Under the pieces are notes generated by a model that saw only the letters and a list, made by a program, of their open reading frames with translations, had not been told where the DNA came from and ran no database searches. This document shows positions 8,232 through 36,095 of a stretch of 64,000 bases of DNA, in pieces (within the stretch, counting starts at the first letter, position 1; every line of letters begins with the position of its first letter). This DNA is from an uncultured Rivularia sp. (GTDB lineage Bacteria > Cyanobacteriota > Cyanobacteriia > Cyanobacteriales > Nostocaceae): the NCBI GenBank assembly GCA_963665115.1, contig OY762007.1, positions 6,112,001-6,176,000 on the forward strand, written 5' to 3'. The position numbers and the translations under genes are program-made.

Positions 8232-8675
8232 ACAATTATTTGGTCAAGCACTCGGAGTTTTCCTTTTCCCATTTCTCCCATGCCTCCTCGAATTCAGCTA
8301 AGGTGTCATAGTCATCTGGTTCTGGTGGTTCAATACTGTCATCCCAGAAAATTATTAATTAGGAGTGTGTCGCTTGAACACTTAGAAAAGTTAGGTTGAT
8401 ATCATAGTTTAAAACTTGAATTTATTCAGTGGGTGCAATAGTATTTAAGATTTTATCCTTTAAACAATTAAAAAAAAATCAATAGAGGATTTAGCATATA
8501 AGTATTTTTAACAACTCCAGAATAGAGGCGTTGCTGTTTTACCGTATCGATTATCTATACTAAATCGATACGTAATTGGTTGAAAAAATTTAATCCACTG
8601 AGTCATCAGCGGGCTTTTCCTTAAGAAGTTTTAATAGTTTCTGATGAGTTCGCCTGAGAGCTTCATTCTCCTCTC

Positions 8676-8939
8676 TCAGGCTGATAATTCCCCCAAGCAT
8701 TGCTGGTAATGGTTAATAATTTGTGAATGTTTATCAAGAGTTTGTTGCATTTCCTCAATCTTCTGCTGCAAGCTAATCACATTATTTTCTTGAGCTTCTG
8801 AAGTTGGTGTATTTAGATATTCGTTGACCATGCTTGAAATAACATCGGTAACGGTTTTTCCCTCCATGCCAGCTTTACGCTTCAAAGCTTCTTTTATTTC
8901 CTGTGTTGTTTCAACTGATATAAAGGTTCTTTTAGGCAT
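8676..8939 (-). CDS. RHH (CopG/ParG-like) DNA-binding protein with coiled coil; probable -1 frameshift extension to 8590
   Basis: N-terminal alternating beta strand (RTFISVET) plus two helices; see findings. Confidence 0.75.
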   Translation of the reverse strand: MPKRTFISVETTQEIKEALKRKAGMEGKTVTDVISSMVNEYLNTPTSEAQENNVISLQQKIEEMQQTLDKHSQIINHYQQCLGELSA

Positions 8940-9543
8940 ATCCTTCGATTATTCTATATCTCTAACTTAACTACATTTGAATTGTATTTACAACTGCATT
9001 GATTTTTGTATTGACTTATTTCCTATCAATCAATACAATAGATACAGAAACCACATTTGTGCGATCGCTATATGGCTAATTAATTTTTACTTACTTTCCC
9101 TTGTTTTTTGTGGATTTATTTCCCCACTTTCTTTGGCTTGCCTTATGGAAGTCTCTATCAAGAAAGCAGCAAGGTTAGCAGTTGGTCTTCCTTGAGAATC
9201 AGCCCACTGCTCTAGTTCTTCAAAAACTGAATCAGGCAAAGTTACAAAAACCCTTTTACTCACGGTGTTTTACATCAAGTCTCGTTTTCCCTCCCATAGT
9301 ACAGTCAAGCTTCACTAATTGAGCCATTTACTACGATTAAGTAGCGATAAGTTATAAATTAGTTACTAATAGTTAGCTTTTTTGGTAGAATAAGATTATC
9401 ATACTAAAAACAAGCACCACAATTTTTTAATCTTGCAGCGCTTGATACGACTATTTAATTTAAAAGCCAAAACCCCCCGCCCAGACTACCAATCAGTTCG
9501 GAGGGTATGGTTTCCCAATTACATCAAAGGGATACTTTATATT

Positions 9544-10984
9544 ATGCATAAGATAGCTTTAGACGACAATACCCAAAACGTCTACCCACCATTTGTATTC
9601 GCCACAAACTTTGATTATTCTCAATTCGAGAATCGAGAACTTCAAAGCAAAGCTAAAACCACGCTCAATCAATTTATCGGCTTTGTTCGGCAAACCTTCG
9701 ACGGCTTACTAGAAAACGGACAAGCATTAAATTCAATCTATCAAGACTGCATTGCTCATTGCCCAAAAGGTAAAAAAGTATTTGACAATTGGCTAGCATC
9801 CGATGACTTCGGAGCATCACGATACATAGCTAAAGCTGCAATTGAAATTTACAATTGGTTTTCAAAACTGCCGAAGCGTTTGCAGCGTCTAGTACGCGCT
9901 AATGTCCAAAAATGGAGCGTGTCAGCACTAAGACAACTAACTAAAGTCAGCCACGATTTAGTAAAGGAATTAGTGCGATCGTCAAAGAAAACAGCGGCAG
10001 AAATTAAGAAAGAGCGAGAGAAAGAGGAGCGGGAAAGGGGTAGAGAGGGAGGGAAGGAACAATCCCTCACTCCCACTTCCCTCACTCCCTCCCTCCTAAA
10101 GCCCGGAAACGCGAATCATAGTTACAAAATGTGACAGAGGTTGGGCTGGTTCTGCTGGAATCATTATGTCCGAGTGGAAGGGTGATTTTTGGGTATTACT
10201 TGACCACGTAGTTACTCAAGGAATGGAAACTAAGCAGCTGTTCAAACCTCATCAAATTCAGCCAGAATCCCAAAAAACAGCCATAAAACCAACTTCCTCA
10301 AAGCATATGTTTAGTGCTGCCGAAGTTGAAAAGAAAATCACTGAAGCTTTAGCACAGCGAGAGAAAGAGAAAACCGAAGAAGAACTAGGAAAATTTGTTG
10401 AAATTCGAGATGCAGCCCTCGAAGCAGCTAAAGAAGAGATAAGTGCTGCCAAAAAACACGCGGCTCAGATGGAACAAGCGAAACAAAAGTTAATCGAGCA
10501 ATTAATAGCCAAAGATAACGAATTAGACCATGTTCGTGGCTTATTAGAAGAAAATCAACGACTCGAACAAAGAATCCAAGATTTAGAAAAATCTCTCGAA
10601 GATTCCAATAGAGATAGCTGGGGTAATACATTTAACAAGCAAGCCGCGAAGGTAGTTAACAAGAATTTAGAAAAAACTATTGAGCCATTGATGTCAGAAG
10701 TTGAGCGTCTAAATAACGTACTTTCTGAAAAAGAGCAGGAATTAACTGAACTTCAAGATACGAGCAGGAAACAGCAGGAAGAATTGCAGCAAAAAATAAA
10801 TTCAAATTCGATTATTAATGAGTTTGGCGAGATTGGAGAGTACCTGGGATGGAATGGTTGGAGTAGTAAAGGGTATAGAGCGAAAAACGGGATGTTGTAT
10901 GGAGGGATTCACGCTCTAACTGCTTTTATTTGTGACTTGAAAGTTTCGCATCCGAATTATCAAGAACAGGAAATTCCGTTTTAA
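9544..10984 (+). CDS. Hypothetical coiled-coil protein, frameshifted near 10107
   Basis: ORFs 9433-10134 and 10166-10984 join (LKPGTRIIVTKCDRGWAG...) if one A is removed from GGAAAC. Likely start MHKIAL at 9544. Purine/pyrimidine repeat insert at about 10025-10096. Confidence 0.6.
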
Positions 10985-11082
10985 ACTGCGAACAAATTCT
11001 ATTTCCGTAAAACCTTGCTTTTAACTAAAAATTAATGGCACTTAGTTTGACATGACAAAATAACCTTTCACAAATAAGTAAT

Positions 11083-11439
11083 ATGCAATTATTAAAACAG
11101 CCGCAAGCTAATACTAAGAAAATTCCTCGGTGGTTCGCTAAATTTGTCTTGTATCAAACACAAAATGGTGCCAATCAACAAATATTGTTGAAACTGTTAG
11201 AACCGATGTCACCAGAAGAATGGTGCATAATTTGGATACCTATTCTTTATCCAGGAATAGAAGTACCAACTCCTGGAAAGCGAAGCCCTCGCGGTTATAT
11301 GAAAGCTTGTAATGCTACTCTTTCTTACTTAACTGGCTATAATGGAAGAGCTATCGAAGGCTGGTTTTATAGCAGGTCTTATCATTATTCGGTGGGGATT
11401 TTATTGCGGTGTTTTGATTTAATCTTGCAAATGAAATAA
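11083..11439 (+). CDS. Hypothetical protein (possible HTH; related to 16506-17108)
   Basis: 118 aa; the C..xLSxLxG...xxW pattern is shared with both halves of the 16506 protein. Confidence 0.55.
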   Translation: MQLLKQPQANTKKIPRWFAKFVLYQTQNGANQQILLKLLEPMSPEEWCIIWIPILYPGIEVPTPGKRSPRGYMKACNATLSYLTGYNGRAIEGWFYSRSYHYSVGILLRCFDLILQMK

Positions 11440-11589
11440 TATCAAATACAGTCAATTGCCTGCATACTATAAGAATAATATATTAAAATCTTGGTAAATC
11501 CAATATTGCAGCCTTTTTTAAATACTAACGTTCTTCAATCATATGTTTCCCATCGCGCCATTTATCAGTCTCTTAGACAGGAATTTGGC

Positions 11590-11823
11590 TTAAAATCTTG
11601 CTAATTCTGCCAAGATTTTTTCAACTTTTAGTAATCTTTTTTCTAGCTCTTCAATCTTCTGGGATTCACCCTTGTGAGGAGTCGCTAGATACTGCTTTAT
11701 GTACTTGATTAATAGTTCTGTTGCTGAAGTGTTATTTTTCCTCGATTTCTTAATAAAAGCGGAATTTAACTCGTCATCGATTCGGATGTTTAATTGACCC
11801 ATAGCATTTCTCATGCTTGACAT
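11590..11823 (-). CDS. RHH DNA-binding protein with coiled coil
   Basis: QLNIRIDDEL...ATELLIKYIKQYL; paralogue of the 8676 and 14120 genes. Confidence 0.75.
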   Translation of the reverse strand: MSSMRNAMGQLNIRIDDELNSAFIKKSRKNNTSATELLIKYIKQYLATPHKGESQKIEELEKRLLKVEKILAELARF

Positions 11824-12080
11824 ATTATATACGGAATATAGTGTATTTTTTTATTTTGTATATTCGATGCGATTGCTTTGCAGATGCCCGCTCGCCGCAC
11901 CTACGGTGAAAGGTCAAATCGCAACCTTTATTACCTAATTTTATAGATAACTGAACTATTTAATTGAGAATACTTACCCGTGTTCACCTTCCGGAGCGTT
12001 GCTCCCCTAAAACTTTTGACAAAATTCTCAACCAACTTACCGAAGTGAAAATTTTGCCCTTCGGTGGAGAAAAGGGAGTA

Positions 12081-13046
12081 TTACTCATGAAGTGGACATC
12101 GCTGCATCATCTCCTCAATCCTCACTACTTCACCTTCGGGCGTATAAACCACCCCTTCAGACATTGCAATTACTATTCTTTCCTTCCTCGCCCATTCAAA
12201 CCAAACACTCACATCGGAAGCTACAGTATTTTTGGGTTTTTCACCGCTTTTACAACTGTTGATAAATAAACCCGTGGGATTATCGCACCATCCTTCATGA
12301 ATTGCTTCTTTGACACGGGCGATCGCACTACTTACATTATCCCAATACTTCTTAATTACCCCCAAACAAGGGTCTGGATTAATTCGCAATCGCTTCAACT
12401 CAGCATAAACTTCTTTTATCTCTAACTTTACAGACTTCTCTGAAGTTGTAAGTACTTCGACTTGCGGCTGAGTAATTTTATCAACACTAGTATCTGGGTT
12501 TTGAGTCGAGTTAACTGGTTCTAATTGTTCATCGTAGCGGGGTATTTGGGTTTCTTGTTCTGCTTCATCAACTTTATCTTCCTCAGTAGCAGTATTGTTG
12601 TTTTCAGAAAACTTAATTGTAGTTTTATATGTTGGCGGATTATTTGCATATTCACCTGAAATATCTGGCGCATTTGTGTCAATATTTTCGCATTGACTAA
12701 ACTCTATAGTTTCCATGATATTTTCCAGGTTGAGTCTATATTCAGAAGCAGTATCTTTAGGGAATCGATGAGATGGTTTATCTTCTACCAATCCGTCAAA
12801 CACCAATTCCCTCATATGCTTACTAATTGTTTCTCGACAGTAGCCAAGAATATCAGCCAGATTCTCAAAAGTGATTCTAACCCAAGAGTTACCGTAATAA
12901 TGCTTTCCATCTAACCAAGACAGTATGGCTGCTTTGCACTTTTGGCGACGGTTGAATGTGGCAAGAAACTCTTTAAGGATGTTGATTGGGGGATTGATTT
13001 GTCCCAATGATGCGGAAGTGAAACTAGTCATTATCTCCTCCTTCAT
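12081..13046 (-). CDS. Putative replication initiator (N-terminal winged HTH)
   Basis: TFENLADILGYCRETISKHMRELVFDGLV wHTH, acidic linker, C-terminal NPTGLFINS helical domain. Architecture of phage/plasmid initiators (inference). Confidence 0.55.
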   Translation of the reverse strand: MKEEIMTSFTSASLGQINPPINILKEFLATFNRRQKCKAAILSWLDGKHYYGNSWVRITFENLADILGYCRETISKHMRELVFDGLVEDKPSHRFPKDTASEYRLNLENIMETIEFSQCENIDTNAPDISGEYANNPPTYKTTIKFSENNNTATEEDKVDEAEQETQIPRYDEQLEPVNSTQNPDTSVDKITQPQVEVLTTSEKSVKLEIKEVYAELKRLRINPDPCLGVIKKYWDNVSSAIARVKEAIHEGWCDNPTGLFINSCKSGEKPKNTVASDVSVWFEWARKERIVIAMSEGVVYTPEGEVVRIEEMMQRCPLHE

Positions 13047-13816
13047 TAAATTGTTTCAATGCCTCACGCTTTGCCACTTCGAGCCTTGCCTGTTCTTCCG
13101 GTGATACTTCTCCAACAACAGTTTTTAGTTCCGAATGCTGTTTTTGTTTAACTTGTTGTGTAAGTGCTTCTATAGGAACTGAATCTTCAGTTTTATAGCT
13201 AGGTTTAAACCCACGACGACGATATAAAAAACGAAAGTGCCGTTTGTCTTGTGGTGGTAATTCTTCCCATACTTCGGCATCCCATCCAGGCGGTATGTAG
13301 TTTGCTTTTGAAGCTGGTAGTAAATTTTGTATTTGGGATTGGAGCAATTGTATTTCTTCTCCTTGTTTCTCAATTATTTGATTCTGCTGCTTAAGTTTTT
13401 CAAGGATATTTGAAAGCAGTTTCTTGGTTTTGCAATCCGAGTTCTGCCTCACGAGTAAGGAGCGCAAAATAGGTTTGTGCTTCTGCTATTTCTGGCTTAC
13501 GTGGGTCGCCATTCATTGCAGTAATATAACAAGCATATCGAGATAGCTTATAATTTTTCAGCACTTCTCTAAATGCCTGAGAGTCCCCTATTCGCGCCAT
13601 TTGGACGACGTTGGTAAAATGGTCAGATACGTTTGCCCCGGAATTGCGAGCGCTAACTTTTGCTCTTTCTACAGTATCTTTAATTCTCTTCCAAGTTCTA
13701 TATCCCATCGACGCTAATAAATCTGTCGCCAACCAGTATTCGGTTCCTAATTCATCAATTTGTTTGATTTTGTCAAATGGACTGGTATCGCTTTTACTTA
13801 AATTAATCGAATCCAT
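13024..13816 (-). CDS. DinD/BRO-like antirepressor with coiled-coil C-terminus (frameshifted near 13420)
   Basis: SPFDKIKQ..GTEYWLATDL..GYRTW and YKLSRYACYITAMNGDPRKPEIAEAQTYF are DinD-family signatures; continues into ORF 13024-13467 after a 1-nt shift. Confidence 0.75.
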
Positions 13817-13974
13817 AATTCCTCCGTTGCAAATGCATGAGAAAATAGAGCGACGCTGCTACTACAACTCGCCACTGAGTAAAATTAATTTCTTTCATCG
13901 CCAAGATTGAGAACTATCAAGTATTAAGCAGCTACAGAGATGCAACTGTTTAATACTTAATAGAAGAAAATTAC

Positions 13975-14455
13975 TTGTTATCCCAAATAGTAACACATAG
14001 TTATCACAATAGATATTGAAGAATAAAAAGCAGTAAACCCGCCTAATGTTTAGCGGGTTTATCTTTAAGCATCTGCTTTAACTGTTCAAGCAATTGCCTG
14101 AGAGAATTATTTTCTTCTCTCAGGCGGCGGTTTCCCCCAGCAATACCTCTTCAAGTTTTTCAACTCGTTGTCTTAATTCTAAAATATCGCCACTTTCAGC
14201 ACTTACTCCAAGATACTGATCGATTAAATCTATAAGAACATCAGTGGCATTTTTACCTTCTGCCTTCACTTTATGGTAGAAAGCATCTTTTTTATCAGGT
14301 GAAATTCTAATATTTAGCCTTGACTCAGCCATAATAATTCCCTTTGCTAATTATTCTAGAGTTATTTCAAATTAGCAATTAAGCCACGGGATAACAAGTG
14401 TACATACGAATTACAGCTATTTGTTATCCCTCCGTGTTGACAAATGGGATAACAA
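13975..14455. promoter_or_regulatory. Four exact copies of GGGATAACAA, candidate RHH operators
   Basis: Copies at 13975-13984 (rc), 14388-14397, 14421-14430 (rc) and 14446-14455; the last two bracket a TTGACA -35 box at 14437. Confidence 0.6.
14120..14332 (-). CDS. RHH DNA-binding protein with coiled coil; probable -1 frameshift extension to 14043
   Basis: SRLNIRISPDKK...ATDVLIDLIDQYL; see findings. Confidence 0.75.
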   Translation of the reverse strand: MAESRLNIRISPDKKDAFYHKVKAEGKNATDVLIDLIDQYLGVSAESGDILELRQRVEKLEEVLLGETAA

Positions 14456-14565
14456 ACATTATTTTAGATAATAAGACAAATACAGCCATGCGTTCGCCTG
14501 TCCTGAGAAAACTAGTACGAACACATGGAGGTAAGCCAAACTCCTATAAAGTCAGGCATCTAATT

Positions 14566-15252
14566 ATGACGTATCTATGTACCAAGCAGCAAGCGCTTCA
14601 TAGTGATAAAAACCAACTAACTATTTCCACAGGCTCAAATGCAATCCCCCAAAGTGATATCACAACAGTAGAAATAAGTTTCTACGACCATGAAATTTAC
14701 GCTGGTGAAAAACTAATTGCTTGTATTGCTCATGACCATGATGATTTTGCGACTCAACGCTGGGTGGTGATGATAAATAGTGTTGAAGTCCACCGAGCAA
14801 ATACTTGGGCAAAATGCTACGACTACATCATATGGCATTACAAGCAAGGAACATTGCCTACACAACAGCAAGAAGAAATAGCTGCAACTTGTAATGAAGA
14901 AACAGCAGAAGTTACCCCAATATCCAAGTTTGAGTTTGACTTATGCAATGATGTTGCCAAACAGAACTTGGTGAAGCTCGACGAAATTGCTTGTAAATCC
15001 TGTAACCATTGGGTAGTGAGAGTCTACGCTCAAAACCAGTTAACACTAAGCTTTGATGGAATATGTCTAAAAGTTGAGTCTTTATGGTTAATAGAAATTT
15101 CTCCACTAGAAAGTAATCAAAGCACAAGTATAAGTGAGAGTTGTGAGGAATTATTAGATCAACCCTTCGATGAATTGATTAGCGAAGAATGGGAAAGATT
15201 AAAAAAGTACAAACCGATTGCTAAAAAGATTCAGACAGCAGCCTTGTACTAA
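14566..15252 (+). CDS. Hypothetical protein
   Basis: In-frame ATG at 14566 of ORF 14398-15252; the upstream part overlaps promoter and operator sequence. Confidence 0.6.
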   Translation: MTYLCTKQQALHSDKNQLTISTGSNAIPQSDITTVEISFYDHEIYAGEKLIACIAHDHDDFATQRWVVMINSVEVHRANTWAKCYDYIIWHYKQGTLPTQQQEEIAATCNEETAEVTPISKFEFDLCNDVAKQNLVKLDEIACKSCNHWVVRVYAQNQLTLSFDGICLKVESLWLIEISPLESNQSTSISESCEELLDQPFDELISEEWERLKKYKPIAKKIQTAALY

Positions 15253-19884: not shown

Positions 19885-22526
19885 TGTGTATGTCAAATTT
19901 ATTGGCGCGGGTGTATGCTTTTTGCTCTCATTATTTAACGTATTGGGAGCGGTGCGGCAGATTCCGGTGAAGACTACTAATGGTAATTCTTCGCGTCCTA
20001 CTGTCACTCAGATGAAACCTCCGGGAACTAGCTTGCATTGGTTGTCGGGTGGAGTCTTTTTTGCAGCAAGTATCAGTTTAATTGCCTGGGCTATTTGGGA
20101 ATATAACTCCAATATCGACCTCGGTGTTGATTCCACTGAGGCTCCTGCACCTGTTGTGCCACCGATGCCCGACACCGATACCCAAATGCCCCAATTTTTA
20201 GATGAAGGTGCAATCCAATCACAGCAATTTGAGGGTGTTAAACCCGAATTTCAAAACTTAGTTCCGTTTCGTCGCCCTACTGCCGATGGTAGCGTGCCGA
20301 TAACCCCCGAACAATTCAAAAATGCGTGCGACTTGTTAGAACTAGGAGCCAAGCGGTCGGCAGATTACCGACGCAAGCCGGGGTATGAGTTCTGGAGTAT
20401 GCGGGGTAAAATCCTCAAAATACTTTAACTGTTTCAAAGATGTGGGTGAAAGTCCCACCCGTCCGGGATGACGTGACTCCCTATCTGACCACACCGAGCG
20501 GCAACGACCGTAACCGTAGAGTGAAGCTGGTGACAGGGCACAATCAGAAGTAAAGCAGGTAACTACACTGGTGCTAATGGGGATGAAATATGGGTAAACA
20601 GGTTCTAGAAAAGTGTCTTATGAATAAGCCATAACCTGGTCAACAAATATGGACTTCAACATCGTTTATTCCCGCAATCTTATTGCATTTGAGAATTGCA
20701 ATCCTGGGAAGATGTTAGGCAAAATGAACCGCCCTAAGTTTCATAAAAGCTTTCAAATGAAGGTATCTTTGTTACGGAACAAGAAAAAACACTATACAGG
20801 TCTAGGGAAAGGTCGAACCCCTGGTAAGCTAGGTTGAACTTAATTCCTGATAGTGGGTAGGATGTTAGCGGAAACTGCTAACGGGTATTCAGAAAATATT
20901 CAAAGGAAGAGAGCATGGTTAGACATACCCCCCTGGGAAATGAACTTTGGAAAGGGTTACCTTGGAAGAAATTTCGTAAAAACCTATTCCGCCTACAACG
21001 GAGAATATTTAAAGCTGTTAGAGAAGGTGACATGGCGAAAGTCCGAAATCTTCAGAAGCTAATCTTGAAATCCACGTCAGCAAAGCTGTTAGCAATTAGA
21101 CAAATAACGCAATTAAATAAAGGCAAGAGAACTGCCGGAGTGGATGGGAGAAAAACACTGAATTTCATCCAAAGGTTCCAAACACTTTTTCAATTAGGAA
21201 ACATAAATAAATGGATACCACAGGAATTAAGGAGGATTCCTATACGGAAAAAGAATGGAAAAGTTAGAATTTTAAGTGTTCCAACTATAACCGATAGAAT
21301 CTGGCAATGCTTAATAAAATTCGCCTTGGAACCCGCCCACGAAGCAACCTTTCATGCCAATAGTTATGGGTTCAGAACAGGTAGAAGCGCCCACGATGCC
21401 CAGAAGATGGTCTTCCAAAGATTAAATTCGAGAGTCAAGGGATATGATAAGAGAATAATTGAACTCGATATCAAAAAATGCTTCGACCGCACAAGTCATG
21501 AAACAATCATGACTCAACTAATTGCCACATCCGGAATAAAACAGGGAATATTCAGATCACTTAAAGCCGGAACATTCCCGGAATTCCCTGAGCAAGGATG
21601 CCCGCAAGGAGGAGTTTTTAGCCCATTACTTGCTAACATTGCTTTAAACGGTACACAATAGCATACGATATGCGGATGACATGGTGTTGTTTCTTAAGCC
21701 AAATGAGGACGCAGGAAAAATACTTCAAAAAGTTAAGACATTCTTGGCCCAAAGAGGTATGCAAATTAGTGAAGAAAAGACAAAGATAAGGCCATCGACA
21801 ACAGGATTCAACTTTCTAGGTTGGAACTTTAAAGTCCAGAAAAACGGTAAGTTTAGAAGCACTCCATCGAAGGAGAACTTTGAAGCTATGCGTGAGAAAG
21901 TAAAATTCATAGTCAACAACTCTAATTATGGGGCTGAAGTAAAAGCACAAAAGCTGGCACCTATTATACGAGGATGGAGAAACTACCACCGCTTCTGCAA
22001 CATGAATAACGTGAGAGATTCCTTATGGTTCATAGCCAAAAGAACTTTTCGAGTATTCAACAAGCAGAAAAAGCTTAACCGATATCAAGCCGAATCGCTA
22101 GTAAAGAAAGCTTTCCCATCGGTTAAATGGGCAGAAAGTAAATTTGTCAATGTAAAAGGTGAGAAATCGCCTTACGACGGAGACATAGTTTATTGGAGTC
22201 AACGGGAATCCAAACTGTATGACGGAATTTCAGCCAAGCTTCTCAAGAAGCAAAACCATACATGTGCTAGATGTGGGATGAAGTTTCTCCCAGGAGAAGA
22301 TGTTCACCTACATCACATAGATGGAAACCACGATAACTGGAAACCAAAGAACTTAGAAATGGTTCACCAGTCGTGTCACCAGTATACGCACATGAGCAAA
22401 GCGAAAGCTCAGAATATCTAGGAGCCGGATGCGGCTAAAGTCGCACGTCCGGATCTGAAGGAGAGGTGCGGAGCGTAATAGCTCTCATCGACTCTAACTT
22501 TAGAAGACGATGTTTGGTCTGATTAA
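19877..22526 (+). CDS. Membrane protein split by group II intron 1 (exons 19877-20325 and 22499-22526)
   Basis: Joined exons read ...PEQFKN-GC|T-TTA GAA GAC GAT GTT TGG TCT GAT TAA (ALEDDVWSD*); the next gene starts at 22538. Confidence 0.75.
20326..22498 (+). mobile_element. Group II intron 1
   Basis: 5' GTGCG at 20326; domain V GAGCCGGATGCGGCTAAAGTCGCACGTCCGGATCT; domain VI ending CTCTAAC at 22498. Confidence 0.92.
20915..22421 (+). pseudogene. ltrA: Group II intron RT/maturase/HNH, frameshifted by an 11-nt deletion before YADD
   Basis: PQGG motif; YADD present at about 21670 in the shifted frame; C-terminal CxxC-HNH. Alignment with intron 2 shows the deletion. Confidence 0.88.
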
Positions 22527-23035: not shown

Positions 23036-23286
23036 TGTTTGTCCGCATAACCTTTTGGTTGGTGCTATGTTTGTTCGTAGCAGATATAGCCCAACCTGGA
23101 TACTTAAAGTTTTGGCAACCTAAGATTACCTTGACCAATATCGATATCAGGTTGCCAAGACTAAATAATAAAGAAACTAGTCCAACAGTATCCCCTCCGC
23201 AACCTTCTTCTTGCCCCCTGCCTGATAATGACTTAGAAGTAGTTATTCGAGCTAGATTTGGCTGCCACAATGCGACTTCTAATTGA
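23035..23286 (+). CDS. Small exported or membrane protein
   Basis: Hydrophobic N-terminus, Pro-rich linker; TGATG overlap with the upstream stop. Confidence 0.55.
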   Translation: MFVRITFWLVLCLFVADIAQPGYLKFWQPKITLTNIDIRLPRLNNKETSPTVSPPQPSSCPLPDNDLEVVIRARFGCHNATSN

Positions 23287-23884
23287 TTTTAGTACTACCG
23301 AAACGAATAAAAGAGATGCATCAATAGTAAAACCAATTTCTCCTAATTGGAAATATGGTTTTTCTACGTTGGTTCTATGTACGGCGATCGCACTTCCTCA
23401 ATTTTCTGGATGGGTTGAGTCCCAACTCCCAATTCGATTACTCCAACGACTCGCAAAAACTACGAACAACGTGACCAAATCACAAAGTACAGCTTTTCCC
23501 ACAATAAAAGGTTCACCTATGACCAGTGGTTTTGGTTGGAGAATTCATCCCCTTACTGGAAAACGTCAATTTCATTCTGGTCTTGATTTTGGTGCTTCCA
23601 AAGGTTCTCCAATTTATGCTTTTGAAGCAGGTAAGGTCGAGTTTGCTGGCTCCAAAGGTGGTTATGGTAAAGCTGTTATTATCAATCACGGTGCCCGAAA
23701 GTCAACCCTTTACGGTCATGCGAAGGCGCTTTCTGTAAGAAAAGGAGAAAGAGTTGCAACAGGACAAATGATTGGGGAGGTCGGAAGTACGGGATTTTCC
23801 ACCGGACCGCATTTACATTTTGAGGTGAGGCTAAATAATAAGCCAGTAAACCCGCGTCCCTATCTACAGCAACGCGGGAGATAA
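23258..23884 (+). CDS. M23 family peptidoglycan endopeptidase
   Basis: TSGFGWRIHP, HSGLD, YGH and STGPHLHFEV zinc motifs; N-terminal TM. Confidence 0.93.
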   Translation: MAATMRLLIDFSTTETNKRDASIVKPISPNWKYGFSTLVLCTAIALPQFSGWVESQLPIRLLQRLAKTTNNVTKSQSTAFPTIKGSPMTSGFGWRIHPLTGKRQFHSGLDFGASKGSPIYAFEAGKVEFAGSKGGYGKAVIINHGARKSTLYGHAKALSVRKGERVATGQMIGEVGSTGFSTGPHLHFEVRLNNKPVNPRPYLQQRGR

Positions 23885-23887
23885 AAA

Positions 23888-24598
23888 ATGATTCGCCCCT
23901 ATCACCTCACAATCTTGTCTTTACTAATTCTATCTTCCCCTTTATTTGGATTATCAATCAATCAAGGTTTCAGCTACATAGATAGGAATAATGCTGAAAA
24001 ACTGTTTGCTAATATTGAAAGTCCCGGTAATCTTGCTATCTGCCGCGCTGAAGGAAATTGTGACAAAAATGGTCAATTTACCTCATTATATTATGGTCAC
24101 ATTGACCCATCAAAAATAGGAGGTAAGCGAGTATTAAATCAAGGATTTTGTAGCGACTACGGTAAAAGTAAAGCGGGTGATATTGATGGTGCAAATCGCG
24201 GCTGTTTGCGTCGAATAAAATCTCGTTTACCGCGATTAACTAAATTATTTCAACAGCATAATATTGATGTAAATGAACATACTGCTGCCTATATTAATGC
24301 CGTAGATTTATGGAATCAAGCTGCACCTAAAGTTAGCGATAATTTTCCTCAAATTTATGCAAATAATATATCTTTTGGATTATCTATTGATGATGCTATT
24401 CGTCGCTCCCGAATTGATGCATTCAATTTAAGCGCGTCCGGCTTGTTTAATATTTGTAGCAGAGAACCATATTACATCTCAAGACTTGCTGCTTATCGTC
24501 AAAATTCAACACAATGGAAGCGTGGATGCATTGACATTGACCAAAACCGCAGACGATTGGCAATCAATGAAATATTAACTCATCGGGGAGTAATTTAG
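23888..24598 (+). CDS. Secreted protein, possible lysozyme-like cell-wall hydrolase
   Basis: Signal peptide; AICRAEG...YYGHIDP...NQG resembles lysozyme-fold enzymes (inference). Confidence 0.45.
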   Translation: MIRPYHLTILSLLILSSPLFGLSINQGFSYIDRNNAEKLFANIESPGNLAICRAEGNCDKNGQFTSLYYGHIDPSKIGGKRVLNQGFCSDYGKSKAGDIDGANRGCLRRIKSRLPRLTKLFQQHNIDVNEHTAAYINAVDLWNQAAPKVSDNFPQIYANNISFGLSIDDAIRRSRIDAFNLSASGLFNICSREPYYISRLAAYRQNSTQWKRGCIDIDQNRRRLAINEILTHRGVI

Positions 24599-24600
24599 TA

Positions 24601-24762
24601 ATGGAACTCGATAATTTTATATATAAAGCTATTGTTCATGCTCGTGATGGGGGAATGGGTAAAGATGAAATATTAGAAACAACTAAAGAAAATTTACCTG
24701 ATAGTTTACACGACAATGCGATTGCTATTGTTAATAATTTAGATTTTGATGTTAAGCAATGA
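24601..24762 (+). CDS. Small hypothetical protein (53 aa)
   Basis: MELDNFIYKAIVHARDGG...KQ*; fills the operon gap and its TGA overlaps the next ATG. Below the ORF-track cutoff. Confidence 0.55.
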   Translation: MELDNFIYKAIVHARDGGMGKDEILETTKENLPDSLHDNAIAIVNNLDFDVKQ

Positions 24763-25983
24763 GAGCCTTATTTTTCCCATTTGTCGGAATTATTCAACTA
24801 TATCTTTTATTTAGTAAATCAAAATAAGAAGGATGAAGCAATATTAAATCAATTATCAAATAGCTGCAACTTGGAGCAATTCGAGTTTGTTAAATACGCA
24901 CTGCGTTATATCAATATCAATCGCATTCCTTCTGCATGGGAACTAGATAACGTACATAGCGAACTAGTCGAGCTTGATGTTGATGAACTAATAAAAAGAT
25001 GCGAAACTCTTAAAAACTTTGCATATAAGGAAGTTGCATATCGGATAATACTGCAACATCTTTACACGGCATTTTGTGAGAATAAACCGATTAAGTGGTT
25101 CATTGATATTGCCCGCTCAACTACTGATGAAACGATTATAAAATATTGCGATCGCGCAGCTGTAATGATATCTAAAGCTCAAGGTGTGGAGCCAATTAAC
25201 GCATTGGAATCAGCGAAAACAGATATTGAACAAACAAGCATATCAACAACTGAGTCCGGAAAGCTGATTATAGATACCCTAGCTGAATTTAAGATAGCAG
25301 CAGAATATATTGACGCACAATGCGGTCCCACATTTAACCGCATCAAAATCAAACTTGGTAAAGGAGTTTCATTTAAGAAAATCCAAGATTTTGGTAACGA
25401 CTTTGTGCAGCAGCTCGGAGACACTTTAAATATGGATACTGCACCAATGGTGTCCGTTGTTCCTGGTGGTGCTGCTATTGATGTCCCTCGCAGCGATAGA
25501 GAAATTGTTTATTTCAAAAATTATGCTGATTTTTCATTACCTATAGATATACATAATGTTGTGATTCCCGGTGGTGTTGGTGTTGATGGAAAATACGTGG
25601 ATATTCCCCTCTCAGATGAAAACGTGACTCATATCCTTGGTGGTGGAAGAACTCGTGGGGGTAAGTCGCAATTTGAGAAAGCAGCAATACTTTATCTGGC
25701 GCGTCGTTATCCCCCGTCAGTAGTCAAGCTAGCTTTATCCGATGTTAAACGAGTGACTTTTAGCAAATTTTCTAAGTTACCCCATCTAATTGCACCCGTA
25801 GCAAAGGATGCAGCTTCGAGTGCAGAATTATTTAGTTTGTTAGTACAGCAAATGGAAGCCCGGTATCGGGAGTTTGAGAAAGTCGGTTGTGAGACGATAG
25901 CCGAATTTAACCGCAAGCATTACCCCGAATTGATTATGCCTCGGATAGCAAGTTTTACAGACGAATGTACCACACAAAGATGA
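24759..25983 (+). CDS. FtsK/SpoIIIE-family DNA translocase (N-terminal TM; C-terminally damaged)
   Basis: Alpha-domain GPTFNRIKIKLGKGV; Walker A GGRTRGGKS, DVKRV, QMEARY; Walker B FTDE followed immediately by TQR*. A start at 24759 needs removal of one A near 24823. Confidence 0.85.
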
Positions 25984-26326: not shown

Positions 26327-29300
26327 ATGATGTTACGAAGAAGATTATCGAAGTTAACAAGTGTTCTATCAGATGTTAACTGTGTAATTGGGGGGTTATC
26401 TTTTCTTGCTGTATTTACTGGTTCGTTAGCTGCCATAATTGGTGTTGGAGGATATTCTTTAGAAAAGCTTGGCGTTCTTAAAGAAGAAGATACTTGGGAA
26501 CAAGCTTGGGCTTTTGCTATTGTTTCTTCCACTGTCGGTTTAGCAGGTACTAGCGTTGCAGCTACAACGGGAGCATTTTTAAGTCGCCGGAACATACAAG
26601 CAGAAGATAATAAATGTACAGAAGCATCTAATAATCTTGATTCATCTACAAGCTTCAAGTTAGGTGCGGCTCGTTCTAACTAAGAGCTTCTAGAAACTAG
26701 AAGGGTAAGAGTTAGGTAGATTCGCGGGGAACACCCCAAAATCTATAATCGTTTCAAAGATGTGAGTGAAAAACTCACCCGTCAGGGATGACGTGACTCC
26801 CTATCTGCCCACACCGAGTAGTGACAACCATCCTACAGAGTGAAGCTGGGAACAGGGCGCAATCAGTTGTAAAACAAGCAGGTAACAACACTGGCGCTAA
26901 TGGGGGGAGAATATGAGTAAAAAGATTCTAGAAAAGTGTCTCAGAAGCAAGCCATAACCTGAATAAAAGAATATGGACTTCAGTATCGTAACTCCCGCAT
27001 CATTATCTAACTGATAGATGCAATTCCCTGGGAAGATACTAGGCAAAGTGAATCGCTCTAAGTTCTCATAATATCTTTGTTACGGAACGAGTAAAAACGC
27101 TGTCTAAGGTCTGAAGCGTAGTCGAAACTTCAGTAAGCCAGGTTGGGACGAATCCCTTACAGCGGGTAGGATGACAGCGGAAACTGCTGTCGGGTATTCG
27201 GAAAATATTCAATGGAGCAGAGCATGATTAGACACAGTGGCAACGCTAGTGAATCTTGGAAAAAGTTACCTTGGAAGAAATTCCGTAAGAACTTATTCCG
27301 CCTACAAAAGAGAATATTCAAAGCTATTAGAGTTGGCAACATAGCTCAAGCCAAGTCACTTCAAAAGCTAGTTCTGAAATCGACATCGGCTAAGTTGTTA
27401 GCAATCCGGCAGGTTACGCAACTAAATAAAGGACGTAAAACTGCGGGTATTGACGGTAAGAAGTCCTTAAACTTCAAAGAAAGATTTGAACTTTATAGAC
27501 TACTTTCACAGGTTAACAATTGGAAACACCAAGGACTAAGGGAAGTACCGATTCCCAAAAAGAACGGAAAAACCAGAATACTTAAGGTACCAACAATTCA
27601 AGATCGAGCATGGCAATGTTTAATTAAATACGCTCTAGAACCTGCCCATGAAGCTACTTTCCACGCGAGAAGCTACGGCTTCAGAACAGGACGCTCGGCT
27701 CATGACGCACAAAAGATTATTTTTCTCAATCTTAAATCTGACCGAGATGGGAAGAATAAAAAAGTAATCGAATTAGACATCAAAAAATGCTTTGATCGAA
27801 TTAGCCACAAGTCAATAATGGACGAGGTGATAATACCCAAAGGAGCAAAACTAGGAATATTCCGCTGCCTTAAAGCCGGAATAAACCCAGAATTTCCCGA
27901 ACAAGGAACTCCCCAAGGTGGAATCGTGAGTCCACTGCTAGCAAATATAGCATTAAACGGAATTGAGGATATACACTCCAGCGTTCGCTATGCCGACGAC
28001 ATGATTATATTCTTAAAACCGGGTGAAGATGAAGTAACAATACTAGAAAAAATATCTCAGTTCCTTAAAGAACGAGATATGGAACTAAGCCAAGAAAAAA
28101 CTAAAGTAACAGCTACGACAGATGGATTTGACTTTCTGGGCTGGAGATTTTCAGTACAGAAAAACGGAAAATTTAGAAGCACTCCCTCAGAGGATAACTT
28201 CAAAGCTTTCCGCGACAAAGTTAAATTCATAGTTAATAACTCTAATTATGGGGCTGAAACAAAGGTCACGAAACTAGCTCCCATCGTAAGAGGCTGGCGT
28301 AATTATCACAAATACTGTGACATGAATAACACCAGACACTCACTGTGGTTCATTAGCTACAGAACATTTAAAGTCTTTTTGAAACAAAAGAAAATTAGCA
28401 GATACAAGGCACAAGCACTAGTCAAGAAAGCTTTTCCTGCTGTTAAATTCACCCAGAATAAATTCGTCAACGTCAAAGGAACAAAATCCCCATACGACGG
28501 TGATGTGACTTACTGGAGTCAAAGAGAATCTAAACTTTATGACGGGAAATCAGCCAAGCTTCTCAAGAAGCAAAACCATACTTGTACTCATTGCGGTATG
28601 AAGTTCTTACCAGGTGAAGATATTCAACTCCACCATAAGGATGGAAACCACGATAACTGGAAAGACAACAATCTCGAAGTCATCCACCAATCGTGCCACC
28701 AATATAAGCACATGAGCAAAGAGCCTCAAATTATTGAATTGCAGAATAAAACCTGGTTTTTCAAGAAAGAGGACTCAAAGGATATCTAGGAGCCGAGTGC
28801 CGGGAAACTGGCACGCTCGGTTCTGAAGGAGAGGTGCCCCGGATAATACCGGGCATCGACTCTAACCAATGACTCGCGATATGTTTGTGATGTGTCGCGA
28901 TAATGATAAGGAGGAAGAAAATAAACCATTAGTTTACACATATTATTTTGTGGAAATCAAAGGTAATCCATCGATTAGCGGATTGATGGTATCAAGAATG
29001 CAATCAAATTCAATCGCTGTATGCGACTGCATTTCTCTAGAAGATGAAGAAAGACTAATGCTAATCCATGAAAATCCTGGGGAAAGTCCCAGGTTAATTG
29101 GAAAAACCTTTTCTAGCTATCAACCATTACCGACAGAAGCGTTACGCGAACACTTGGATATTTACAATCCATACCTATATGCACTTCAAAGCAAAGACTT
29201 TGAACCATGCAATTTAGAATCTTGCAAAGGCTGTCAGCATTTGCACGGCAAGGATAGGATAGTTTGTGGGATATATGCTTATGGATGGAATGGTATTGAC

Positions 29301-31411: not shown

Positions 31412-32289
31412 TTAAAACTCCGGCACAAATAATTCCTTACTTGCTCCAGCATAATGCTCGTAAATCATCTTAGGACTCGTCCCAACTAACTTCGCTACAT
31501 CCTTTGCATCAAGCATCTTGGTTCTTCCATCTGGGGTAGGAATTGGTGTTTCTAAGGCTGCTGTAATAAAAGTATGCCTGGTTTGATAAAGTTTACGATA
31601 CTCTATGGTGCCATTTAATTCTTGAAGCACAGAACGCCATACTCTATTCGTAAGGTTATGGACATCAATCCATTTACCTTTGGGAGAAGGAAATACTTTA
31701 GTCTCACCAGTAGCACCTTCTGGTTTGATTGACTCTAGAAGTGCTGCGAGTTTCTTGTTTGCTGGAAACGAACGTTTTTTCTGAGTCTTCAATCCTTTTT
31801 TACATACCAGTCCGTTTTCTGCTTCAACTACCGCTTGTTCAAATCGTATTGTTCTGAAGTCATCTGAAATATGCTTCCATTGCAAAGCAACAGCTTCAGA
31901 TGGCGAGCAATTTTAGTATAATCCTTTGCCAAAGTACTCGGCGATAGGCTAGAACGCTTAAAATCAGTATATTTCTCCCACAACTTCACCAATGTTGGTT
32001 GAGACGCAGATGGTGTAGAAGATGGTGTAAATGGTGTAATTTCTCCTGAATCGACTTGTGACTTGTATTTATCCAAATCCTTGGGGTCAAACCGCTCAAA
32101 CAAAATATCTTTTTCAATTTCCGAAGCCTTTAATTTAGCTAACTTCCGATGATGCGGCGTATCGGGATAGCCAGTAGAAATATAATACCGCTTGCGGGCA
32201 AAGTGAAATCTTAGCTGCAAACGACCATTAGAAAGAATTACCGATACAGAACCTTTAGAAGCCCTGCCAGTTGGTGTTTTAGAAGCCAT
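31412..32289 (-). pseudogene. Tyrosine integrase with an arm-binding domain, internally deleted
   Basis: N-terminal GRLQLRF...YISTGYPDT arm-binding domain; YTKIAR is joined directly to PSEAVALQWKHI in another frame; C-terminal YQTRHTF and IYEHY retained. Confidence 0.85.
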
Positions 32290-32722: not shown

Positions 32723-33233
32723 TTAATCCCCGAAGTTTTCAGCTATTAATTTGGTGGGTAAATAGAGTTTAGTGGGGTACTGTTTAAACTGCTCAAAACC
32801 ATATTTTTGGTAAAATCTGACTGCATTCTCATCTATTGCTTCTACTACAACAGCTAGCGATGCAACCTGCGAGGTAGCATCTAAAATCCTTTTAAGAGCA
32901 TCAATTAAAACCAACTCACCGATACCTTTACCTTGATGACTCTGCGAGACAGCAAGACGACCCTAGTAAAGTAGCAGGAAGTAAAGGATAACGCGGTACA
33001 GTTTTTGCAAAATCCTCATTTAAATTAGAAGCATCCACTGTATAGGAAGAAAGCGTGTAGTAAGCAATAATATCAATGTTCGGGGAATCAATTAATACAA
33101 AAACTGTAGAAACTTTTTTCTTAAGCTCCTGAGATGCGCCTTTACGAATATAATTGTCTAAACTATCATTTCCGCTAATAAACGCCGAACGGTTATGCCT
33201 CTTTTTATCAAGCAATTCAATCGTTAATGCCAT
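32723..33233 (-). CDS. GNAT acetyltransferase toxin (TacT-like), 1-nt frameshift
   Basis: HNRSAFISG..LDNYI, YYTLS, PATLLG then RLAV..QGKGIG after removing one G near 32962; FYQKYGF. Confidence 0.85.
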
Positions 33234-33519
33234 TGTTTTCCATTACTTGCTTGTAACGTGAAGTTGCTTCTCGCAAAGCATCCGAGGGCTTGGGTGGATT
33301 TAAAATTGCTTCAACAAAAGCTTCTGCATCCTCTGTACTCAATTTTAAAGTTTGTTGCTGTTCGATAACTTTACACGCAGCTGCTTGAACGCTGGCTATG
33401 ACGAAATCCGTTAAGGTTACTCCTTGTAAATCAGCGGCTTTCTGCCATAAAGCTTTGATTTCTGGATTCACGCGAGCTTCTAAACGAGCCATTGATTTCG
33501 GAACGTTAGTGTTGCTCAT
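33217..33519 (-). CDS. DUF1778 (TacA-like) RHH antitoxin
   Basis: ARLEARV...KAADLQGVTLTDFV...LS.ED...F...LNPPKP; overlaps the GNAT gene. Confidence 0.9.
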   Translation of the reverse strand: MSNTNVPKSMARLEARVNPEIKALWQKAADLQGVTLTDFVIASVQAAACKVIEQQQTLKLSTEDAEAFVEAILNPPKPSDALREATSRYKQVMENNGIND

Positions 33520-35343: not shown

Positions 35344-35679
35344 CTAACCCATAGCAAAATCTGTAAATTGCCTTTTTAATGGTGAATGAAATCCTATAAC
35401 AATATCTTGTTTAGGAATCCCCATCGAAACTAATTCTTCAGCAATATTTATTTCTGTTCCATTCCACTGAATCCAAATTTTTTCATTTTTGATATCTATA
35501 TGTATCGAACAACCATAAACACGATGTTTATTTTCCCAGCCTACATTAACAAGTTGATAATGGTCGCGTACTGTATCAAATATCTGTTCAACCTCTACAT
35601 CTCCGTAGGAAGGTTTGTAACTGCCATATTTAACCAAAAGTTGCTGAACGTATTCTCTATATTTTTCTAATTTATCCAT
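35344..35679 (-). CDS. xisI: XisI family protein
   Basis: DTVRDHYQLVNVGWENKHRVYGCSIHIDIKNEKIWIQ...IAEELVSMGIPKQDIVIGFH. Confidence 0.95.
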   Translation of the reverse strand: MDKLEKYREYVQQLLVKYGSYKPSYGDVEVEQIFDTVRDHYQLVNVGWENKHRVYGCSIHIDIKNEKIWIQWNGTEINIAEELVSMGIPKQDIVIGFHSPLKRQFTDFAMG

Positions 35680-36095
35680 CTTACTACTTCCTCTATTTCA
35701 GTATCGTAAACTACTAGCTTTAATTGAAATTCTTGAAGTTGAAGCTGTAGAAATGGAAGCTTAAAAAAATCATTATAGGTTTCTATATCAACAGCTAAAT
35801 ATAGTTTGCGTTCTGGTTCTTTTGCTCGAAGAGCAGTTCGGTAGTTAAGGAATTGTCCTAGAGCTACATGAAAATCAGTGATAGCTGATGGATTAAGAAA
35901 ACTTTTTATTTCAACAGCGATTTTTTCTCCTTCCTTCTCAGCTGCAAGTAACTTTTCTGCTCCCAAATCGATACGCATCTGAACTTGACCAAAGTCAATA
36001 TACAGGGGGTCGTTTGTAATACTCCACCCATCTTTTTCCAAAGCTAATCTCACGATATCGTGAAATTTATCTTTTGCTGACATAACTTCTAACAT
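35667..36095 (-). CDS. xisH: XisH family protein
   Basis: AKDKFHDIVRLALEKDGWSITNDP, IDLGAEKLLAAE, IAVEIKSF, ALGQFLNY. Confidence 0.95.
   Translation of the reverse strand: MLEVMSAKDKFHDIVRLALEKDGWSITNDPLYIDFGQVQMRIDLGAEKLLAAEKEGEKIAVEIKSFLNPSAITDFHVALGQFLNYRTALRAKEPERKLYLAVDIETYNDFFKLPFLQLQLQEFQLKLVVYDTEIEEVVRWIN

Follow-up and report, generated by a model that had tools for sequence, protein, structure and literature searches.

In Escherichia coli dnaX, which encodes tau and gamma, -1 frameshifting relies on the heptamer A_AAA_AAG, a spacer of approximately 6 nucleotides (nt), a downstream hairpin and an upstream Shine-Dalgarno-like stimulator, and the shifted frame stops at once, which gives a shorter protein. 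The IS911 shift takes place inside a leucine zipper, so that the two products differ in the last heptad. The Mnt repressor is made a tetramer by its C-terminal coiled coil. To our knowledge, conserved bacterial frameshifting outside insertion sequences and phage structural genes is confined to a handful of cases, e.g., dnaX, copA and csoS2. Here, we analyzed a 64-kb stretch of DNA from an uncultured Rivularia sp. (contig OY762007.1), referred to as the window, in which two genes for ribbon-helix-helix (RHH)-type regulators (gene 1 and gene 2) very probably end in a conserved programmed -1 frameshift cassette, the predicted products being a short and a long isoform of each protein.

Other regulators have been linked to frameshifting before. 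According to the available portion of one source (PMC5009743), OrfA/OrfAB of the IS3 family (e.g., IS911) comprises a small DNA-binding regulator of a mobile element that is fused to a downstream product by a -1 frameshift; FseA of ICEMlSymR7A (msi172/msi171), which forms part of an integrative element's regulatory circuit, is made only via a +1 ribosomal frameshift; and cro of Lactobacillus phage A2, a lysis/lysogeny regulator, undergoes a -1 frameshift yielding a product 12 amino acids (aa) shorter, a shift observed in E. coli that apparently has no relevance for the phage in its natural host. With regard to the slip site, GGGGGAA is the only sequence of the ‘fivetwo’ motif, found at about a thousand annotated SEA-PHAGES -1 sites in tail genes, and its slippage has been explained by the second tRNA re-pairing on GGA if G:U is allowed (PMC10885494, in the text accessible to us). 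For the tail assembly genes of corynephage phi16, the same heptamer is named as the slippery sequence, the site being described with an internal Shine-Dalgarno sequence and a pseudoknot (PMC5506516, also available in part). The initial annotation of this DNA had presented the G_GGG_GAA slip as non-canonical and undescribed; given these sources, in the parts seen, the heptamer was already documented at -1 sites, and this portion of the proposal does not stand.

The positions of all features are compiled in Table 1. When checked on the sequence, the 3′ end of gene 1 reads TTG GGG GAA TTA TCA GCC TGA and that of gene 2 CTG GGG GAA ACC GCC GCC TGA. At both sites, the run of five Gs and two As (G5AA) is followed, after a spacer of 6 nt, by a candidate hairpin that holds the 0-frame stop, and the whole cassette measures about 45 nt. 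The arrangement GCCTGAGAG-N12-CTCTCAGGC occurs exactly twice in the window, where 0 occurrences were expected from 100 shuffles, and no more than twice in the whole 8.69-Mb genome. The peptides encoded by the two -1 extensions are identical at 13 of 29 positions, as counted on both strings. A third RHH paralogue within the window ends in TTG GCA GAA TTA GCA AGA TTT TAA, with neither a G run nor a hairpin. The gene ends, G5AA positions, 30-nt hairpins, -1 stops and 13/29 identity proposed initially agreed at all the coordinates checked, and the GCA GAA end without extension of the third paralogue was confirmed.

In the mechanism proposed here, the hairpin would halt ribosomes whose P and A sites hold GGG and GAA, respectively; in a tandem slip, the P-site tRNA-Gly would move from GGG to GGG, and the A-site tRNA-Glu would exchange GAA for GGA, on which it forms a central G:U pair. 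Unshifted ribosomes would meet the stop five codons on and release the short protein of 87 or 70 aa, and a shifted fraction would read 31–34 further codons in a frame ending inside the gene's own terminator. The long product would begin with the RHH domain and its long helix; past a junction of Gly-Gly or Gly-Glu, it would continue with another helix, LREENxSLRQxLExLKxMLKEKPA, whose hydrophobic residues lie at heptad-like spacing when read from the peptides and which is amphipathic and leucine-zipper-like in prediction. Such a long form would likely differ from the short one in oligomeric state or C-terminal fate, and this alteration would change repressor occupancy of the operator-like repeats found upstream and past the terminator. 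The role of the long form, including the earlier proposal that its oligomerisation tunes repression or partition, is purely conjectural.

In order to assess conservation, relatives were picked by protein similarity alone. The gene 1 protein retrieved 23 homologues (22 relatives and its own entry) with 64–95% identity, all ending in QQCLGELSA, while the gene 2 protein had matches in 150 of the 389 genomes of the family. The loci examined comprised 11 of gene-1-type, 30 of close gene-2-type and 20 of distant gene-2-type (40–76% identity); one of these 61, L018, is the window's own genome and was excluded, which left 60 counted loci (11 gene-1-type and 49 gene-2-type). GGGGGAA was present at the expected place in 58 of them, a hairpin with at least eight of the nine stem pairs in 59, and a -1 frame open for at least 24 codons in all 60. 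The distance between heptamer and hairpin was also 6 nt in the 58 relatives bearing the heptamer. Similarly, the 0-frame stop lay five codons past the heptamer in every one of 60 cassettes picked by pattern. As for deviating loci, the cassette is lost in L048, where the 0 frame continues, and the 3′ end of L003 is divergent. L013 has lost the G run (GGGAGAA) and carries a 1-nt insertion breaking the extension, and in L009 an extra G past the hairpin truncates the extension; both may be decayed copies or assembly errors.

A profile built from the extension peptide matched 155 of the 389 genomes of the family and 36 of its 68 genera, with up to 10 matches per genome and approximately 330 places in total (150 listed and 177 unlisted). 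Of the genomes sampled in a pattern search across the phylum, 4 of the 45 from the window's family contained the GGGGGAA cassette, as against 0 of the remaining 355, and the controls gave 0; since that pattern was fixed to GGGGGAA and a 12-nt loop, it is uninformative on other variants outside the family.

The existence of a frame change depends on the presence of five Gs, and a homopolymer located exactly where the frame changes could point to a sequencing or assembly error (really six Gs and one open reading frame, ORF) or to a decaying pseudogene. In Logan contigs from two runs of the same organism, both G runs were covered with 0 differences and 0 gaps relative to the window, and the contigs of run X1 matched it over 8400-10089 and 10615-14700, again with 0 differences and 0 gaps. 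Because both runs may be the genome's own data, independent support for five Gs was taken from the relatives, which stem from many separate assemblies and 58 of 60 of which likewise carry five and not six. Furthermore, all 23 gene 1 homologues end at the same residue, and purifying selection was seen in both frames. On the agreement of the contigs, the relatives with five Gs and the shared end of the gene 1 homologues, an error or a pseudogene was ruled out, its probability being practically negligible. Apart from the G runs, the contig of run X2 has one base fewer than the window at 10107 and at 13420, whereas run X1 equals the window there. Assembled contigs from two metatranscriptomes of relatives cover 8603-8941 and 14057-14254 and have no indels.

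We also monitored the pattern of substitutions in the extension, using 31 sequences (20–22 unique) of the gene-2 family and nine sequences of the gene-1 family. Between hairpin and terminator, changes at -1 codon positions 1/2/3 numbered 9/1/16 in the gene-2 family and 5/3/13 in the gene-1 family, with ratios of nonsynonymous to synonymous polymorphism (pN/pS) of 0.11 and 0.18, respectively. Over the whole extension, pN/pS in the -1 frame was 0.19 (gene-2 family) and 0.32 (gene-1 family), the value for the gene bodies in the 0 frame being 0.21. The remaining two sense frames gave 0.7–13.6 (1.3–4.0 in the gene-1 family), and stops were present in them. This third-position bias, together with the low pN/pS, indicates that the extension is under protein-level selection in the -1 frame, judging from the substitutions among the relatives. 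With these results and the open frames in all 60 loci, the -1 frame conservation anticipated in the initial annotation was borne out.

These data also bear on the view that the conserved 3′ region is only an RNA or DNA element acting in processing, binding or attenuation, with the open -1 frame as an untranslated by-product. It is true that hairpin, terminator and operator-like repeats are packed into about 130 nt, and that the conserved terminal K-P-A residues of the extension are dictated by the terminator stem. This view is nevertheless very unlikely, as substitutions fall mainly at -1 third positions, pN/pS values between hairpin and terminator are as low as in the gene body, no -1 stop precedes codon 24 at any of the 60 loci, and -1 extensions as long as 50 to over 87 codons occur in relatives found in metagenomes.

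Regarding the hairpin, 99.3% of the 405 stem cells pair in an alignment of 45 distinct cassettes, as compared with 25–47% in slid controls. Four of the nine stem pairs show compensatory double changes, a level reached by 0 of 500 shuffles. Variant stems include GCTTAAGGAG/CTCCTTAAGC (with TAA as the stop), GCCTAAGAA/TTCTTAGGC and GCCTGAGGG/CCCTCAGGC. The gene 2 hairpin region folds at -25.3 kcal/mol (z score -4.9). Codon choice in the stem arms is unusual as well: among 59 unique cassettes (the window plus L003-L063), CTG was used in 56, CTC in 55 and AGG in 56, and these codons make up 7%, 5.6% and 6.3%, respectively, of the genome-wide codons for their amino acid (Leu or Arg); past the hairpin, the Leu codons are an ordinary mix. 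In line with this, invariant third positions in the gene-2 family amounted to 1 of 17 in the gene body, 6 of 9 in the slip site, spacer and 5′ arm, 6 of 11 in the hairpin region and 2 of 11 in the later extension.

For the slip site, the strongest test was made on metagenome contigs, which were scanned with the hairpin alone as the query and the heptamer left free. In the 47 of 64 parts of the collection that were covered, at least 107 loci (at least 101 unique) were retrieved, and about 160 stretches are estimated for the whole collection. Membership of the family was set at 22 bits or more against the extension profile. Among the matches listed, 70 unique loci passed this cut, and all 70 carry one of five shift-prone heptamers in the same phase: GGGGGAA (33), GGGGGAG (19), AAAAAAA (12), GGGAAAA (5) and GGGGAAG (1). 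At the swapped heptamers, the residues read GE, KK or GK in the 0 frame and GG, KK, GK or GE in the -1 frame; as translated, heptamer exchange changes the amino acids in both frames, with the predicted capacity for re-pairing being kept. Below 22 bits, 31 loci were listed, of which seven carry GGGGGAG or GGGGGAA and three GGGAAAG, GGAAAAG or GGTAAAG; these 10 loci with shift-prone-type heptamers are divergent members. The heptamers of the other 21 are mostly arbitrary (e.g., CGATCGC and TCACCGT), one high-GC locus having GGGGGGC.

Heptamer exchange is also relevant for the idea that RNA polymerase, rather than the ribosome, slips on the G5 or A7 run, so that an extra base in a minority of transcripts would lead to the long protein by standard translation. 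Most members have a homopolymer (G5 or A7) at the shift site, and the same -1 frame product would be expected. Productive polymerase slippage known from bacteria involves longer runs, and a stimulatory stem-loop, if any, lies upstream. Here, the hairpin sits 6 nt downstream, which is the ribosomal arrangement, and GGGAAAA (five loci), GGGGAAG (one locus) and GGGAAAG are not homopolymers. In addition, no indel was seen at the run in RNA-library contigs of relatives, a weak argument since contigs hide rare variants. Taken together, we consider polymerase slippage quite unlikely.

The G_GGG_GAG members listed from metagenomes have longer -1 ORFs: 11 close at 30–66 codons, and in eight the 220-nt flank ends before a stop is reached, after 40 codons in one and after 87 in seven. 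Several of the long extensions share a C-terminal ...VGKQSPEYKRTKAVIDRFI... motif, and others enter long coiled coils. In two of them, a MerR-type helix-turn-helix was found below threshold (23.1 bits against a cut-off of 28.2), which can serve as a hint only. Because of these variable, longer -1 ORFs, the cassette gives the impression of a movable connector linking an N-terminal regulator to C-terminal modules that vary, as far as predicted frames can tell. Individual examples with G_GGG_GAG or G_GAA_AAG cassettes and -1 ORFs between 50 and over 87 codons long are L083, L090, L088, L118 and L121.

A number of observations weigh against frameshifting as the explanation, or at least against its strength. 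The RNA contigs show five Gs and unbroken cover of the extension and are silent on slippage or expression level, and the efficiency of the predicted slip could be very low. For gene 1, the fold of the 61-nt hairpin region has only a marginal advantage over shuffled sequences (z score -1.4), and in its minimum-energy fold (8640-8700, minus strand) the slip-site GCUUGGGGG pairs with CUCUCAGGC of the 3′ arm in place of the conserved hairpin. Since the extension profile starts with GG, the 22-bit cut favours G-rich heptamers; even so, the A7 and G3A4 members pass it despite this bias. In 4307 long ORFs of the genome, in-frame NNG GGG GAA was observed 128 times against 199 expected (observed/expected ratio 0.64), but neighbouring controls gave 0.75–0.89, so the heptamer alone is not strongly avoided and this comparison is a weak one. 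Low pN/pS was also seen in one antisense frame, and the 12 codons of it that were tested in the gene-2 family contain no stop; a low antisense ratio is expected where wobble positions coincide. An antisense gene under the extension was considered and rejected, as that frame has 17 stops in nine gene-1-type sequences. Finally, the -1 frame of gene-1-type loci contains an ATG (10 of 11) or a GTG (1 of 11) at a distance of four codons ahead of the heptamer, which makes independent initiation possible in that subfamily.

The latter finding could mean that the -1 ORF is a separate, unfused gene of 36–45 aa with its own start or coupled to termination of the RHH gene, and gene callers do list ORFs of 36–45 aa alone (P0025-P0029). 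Against this, 49 of the 60 loci, all of gene-2-type, lack ATG, GTG and TTG throughout the open upstream -1 window, which in these loci often spans 3–7 codons and in several just 3–4 (in gene 2 of the window, it has four codons and no start). Moreover, a separate gene leaves unexplained why five heptamers are kept at one phase and why a hairpin lies 6 nt downstream. We therefore regard a separate gene as unlikely overall, and as possible for the gene-1 subfamily only.

Natural in-frame fusions of the two parts were also sought. None was found among proteins of 71–2000 aa sharing words with the gene-1 -1 ORF (a weak word-index search), among the 60 loci, or in an extension-profile search of 1.84 billion cluster representatives, which returned no in-frame RHH fusion. 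The profile matches among these representatives were four separately called ORFs of 36–45 aa and nine repetitive or low-complexity coiled-coil proteins. Two loci with suspiciously long open frames had been taken as candidate fusions, and a sequence check showed that neither is fused. Had the long form alone been of importance, a fixed one-base insertion would be expected in some lineage; as none was seen, the arrangement appears to be maintained so that both forms are made.

Altogether, the central proposal of the initial annotation, namely a short and a long isoform generated by a -1 cassette, gained support from every comparative test run: conservation of the cassette, the coding signature of the -1 frame, covariation in the stem, rare codons in its arms, heptamer exchange and the 49 of 60 loci without a start codon.

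Table 1. Positions in the window of the frameshift cassettes, the RHH genes and the associated terminator-like and operator-like elements.
Feature	Position	Strand	Details
Gene 1, RHH regulator, 0-frame coding sequence (short isoform, 87 aa)	8676..8939	-	ORF list; C-terminus QQCLGELSA, then stop
Gene 2, RHH regulator, 0-frame coding sequence (short isoform, 70 aa)	14120..14332	-	ORF list; C-terminus LLGETAA, then stop
Gene 1 slippery heptamer G_GGG_GAA (G5AA run)	8688..8694	-	sequence
Gene 2 slippery heptamer G_GGG_GAA (G5AA run)	14132..14138	-	sequence
Gene 1 candidate stimulatory hairpin	8652..8681	-	9-bp stem, 12-nt loop; 5′ arm holds the 0-frame TGA
Gene 2 candidate stimulatory hairpin	14096..14125	-	9-bp stem, 12-nt loop; 0-frame TGA inside
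Gene 1 -1 frame extension, heptamer to TAA	8590..8694	-	34 codons and stop (8590-8592); GGIISLREENEALRRTHQKLLKLLKEKPADDSVD, then stop
Gene 2 -1 frame extension, heptamer to TAG	14043..14138	-	31 codons and stop (14043-14045); GGNRRLREENNSLRQLLEQLKQMLKDKPAKH, then stop
Gene 1 intrinsic-terminator-like hairpin and T run	8595..8612	-	inside the end of the -1 ORF
Gene 2 intrinsic-terminator-like hairpin	14034..14061	-	-1 stop TAG in the loop
Operator-like inverted repeat TTGTATTGA..TCAATACAA	9006..9038	.	divergent promoter region upstream of gene 1
Related palindrome GTATCGATT..AATCGATAC	8544..8571	.	just past the gene 1 terminator
Three exact TTGTTATCCC copies, operator-like	14388..14455		divergent promoter upstream of gene 2; 14388-, 14421+, 14446-
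Fourth exact TTGTTATCCC copy	13975..13984	+	about 50 nt past the gene 2 terminator
Third RHH paralogue, no cassette	11590..11823	-	comparison; C-terminus KILAELARF, then stop

With regard to the nature of the two proteins, matches to the Pfam families RHH_1, RHH_9, TacA1 and ParD were obtained for the gene products, all under the curated cut-offs; those of gene 2 were weak matches to RHH_9 and TacA1. No NCBIfam or PHROG family fits gene 1 or gene 2. In the AlphaFold2 model of gene 1 (predicted local distance difference test, pLDDT, 82), an extended N-terminus is followed by helices 13-26 and 30-43 and by a long helix, 48-86, which extends to the frameshift site. A Foldseek search with this model gave no match at E ≤ 0.001, every E-value being above 0.1; the best rows were CopG, ParG, Arc, omega and RHH antitoxins, over about 40 residues with a root-mean-square deviation of 0.8–1.4 Å and a target-based template modelling score, TM(target), of 0.84. 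With sub-threshold Pfam matches and E-values above 0.1 despite RHH proteins in the best rows, the assignment of genes 1 and 2 as RHH regulators is likely, not proven.

An alternative role as type II antitoxins was also considered. No toxin-family match was found among the neighbours, which comprise an RHH_5 gene, a Bro-N gene and family-less proteins, and each of the two genes is ended by a terminator-like hairpin, as opposed to the co-transcribed toxin that would be expected of a type II antitoxin. The short forms end in small hydrophobic C-termini (-TAA, -SAA, -LAA, -LSA and -LVA; 8679-8687 and 14123-14131 in the window, and relatives). These tails presumably resemble ssrA-like C-terminal degradation signals, which the long form would replace.

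The terminator-like hairpin that had been reported at the extended stop of gene 2 was recovered, and a counterpart was found in gene 1. A strict search for a hairpin plus T run identified predicted terminators in 51 of the 59 unique cassettes and none in the other eight. In 47 of the 59, the -1 stop is enclosed by the terminator hairpin (loop in 37, 3′ arm in eight, 5′ arm in two); in three more it comes no more than 7 nt past the hairpin and in one ahead of the stem, and in most cassettes the 0-frame stop is 57–63 nt upstream of the terminator stem. Because the -1 stop is inside the terminator, frameshifted ribosomes would enter it, and either termination or the lifetime of the 3′ end of the mRNA could change as a result. 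In L006 and L008, another terminator of this type, ...AAAGAAAGCCCGCC..GGCGGGTTAA, was observed about 60–140 nt upstream of the gene-1 homologue, which suggests that two cassette-bearing genes can sit in tandem.

Candidate operator sites flank both genes. The TTGTTATCCC element has exactly four copies in the window, all around gene 2, and its 8-mer occurs upstream, at -110/-87/-52, in each of the 30 unique gene-2-type loci; 28 of these have it on both sides, the copy past the terminator being at +347/348. The surroundings of gene 1 contain a GTATYGATT palindrome as candidate sites only: TTGTATTGA/TCAATACAA was found at -97/-75 in 6 of 11 gene-1-type loci, with a variant form in three more, and a palindrome of the GTATCGATT..AATCGATAC type at about +368/+390 in 10 of 11, L003 being the locus without it. 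Operator-like repeats thus bracket each RHH gene at distances fixed across relatives, and a longer, differently oligomerising repressor could bridge the flanking sites.

These features admit a broader interpretation, in which the cassette is a portable recoding switch coupling the frameshift rate to terminator read-through, operator looping and domain grafting; we hold it to be rather doubtful. If true, frameshifted ribosomes would melt the terminator, and transcription would run into the next gene (here, Bro-N); the long repressor would bridge operator copies, with the frameshift rate setting read-through as well as DNA looping; and the cassettes of relatives would graft extra domains, such as MerR-like helix-turn-helix and long coiled coils.

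With regard to the genomic setting, the region around the RHH genes contains an RHH_5 gene, a Bro-N gene, an AAA_24/Sak4-like gene and a replication-initiator-O-like gene, and probably serves an integrated mobile element for control and replication. Judging from genes for an FtsK/SpoIIIE-like translocase and an M23 peptidase and from a fragment of an integrase arm-binding domain (23258-25980 and 31831-32289), the two regulators would be part of an integrated element of about 24 kb, which may be transferable. Relatives of gene 2 were found on large conjugative Nostoc plasmids (six records) and in two IMG/VR contigs, and no phage record in INPHARED matched the gene 2 region. In two of the Nostoc plasmid records, RefSeq gives the short ORF only, as ‘hypothetical protein’, which is in agreement with the initial statement that annotation misses the long form.

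Several other genes were observed in the window. Two genes for group II intron reverse transcriptases/maturases are present, that at 20915-22418 being split into two ORFs (RVT_N+RVT_1, then RVT_1+GIIM) and that at 27212-28786 being intact (525 aa). A TacA-like antitoxin ORF (33220-33519) adjoins a family-less ORF (32931-33233) in the region 32931-33519 on the minus strand, and a XisI/XisH gene pair lies near it at 35347-36095 on the same strand.

In the open full-text literature, no description of a -1 cassette on RHH regulators of cyanobacterial mobile elements was found, supplements and subscription journals being outside the scope of this search; by term, the accessible text of the Atkins 2016 review and of Antonov 2013 yielded no such case. 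TrcR is an unrelated RHH repressor. As predicted from these comparisons, the mechanism would be classical -1 frameshifting on a documented heptamer, and what appears to be new is its host, a family of unannotated RHH regulators. If confirmed, this family, carried on plasmids and integrated elements of heterocystous cyanobacteria, would add a large group to conserved bacterial frameshifting, and a transcription regulator of mobile elements would gain a second, hidden C-terminus. As the annotations examined list the short form only, the proteome of these elements would be systematically incomplete. The natural variants of slip site and stem make the cassette well suited to experiment, and Nostoc punctiforme PCC 73102, with NPUN_RS35390 on plasmid pNPUN02, is a genetically tractable carrier.

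Compared with the systems introduced above, the RHH cassette shares with dnaX the heptamer, the spacer of about 6 nt and the hairpin, as well as two products with a common N-terminal part and a different C-terminus. It differs from dnaX in its protein family and in that the unshifted frame stops after five codons, while the shifted frame would give the longer protein. The heptamer GGGGGAA is that of the tail assembly chaperone (G/GT-type) shift of actinobacteriophages and of corynephage phi16; those are structural phage genes of high-GC hosts, whereas here small DNA-binding regulators of cyanobacterial plasmids and integrated elements are concerned, and, unlike the phi16 site, the RHH cassette uses a simple hairpin enclosing the 0-frame stop. 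In the IS3 family, the catalytic domain of a transposase is fused to the regulator, in contrast to the helix of about 30 residues, or the 50 to more than 87 codons, predicted to be joined here, where no transposase is involved. With respect to FseA, the shift is -1 and not +1, the protein is of another type, and two isoforms of a DNA-binding protein are predicted instead of a single essential fusion. Unlike A2 cro, the RHH cassette is conserved family-wide. Lastly, the two regulators have, like Arc, Mnt and CopG, a divergent promoter with inverted repeats, and they may share with them an N-terminal strand and two helices, as predicted; these known repressors encode their oligomerisation helix in frame, whereas in the proteins described here the additional helix would be reached through the -1 frame.

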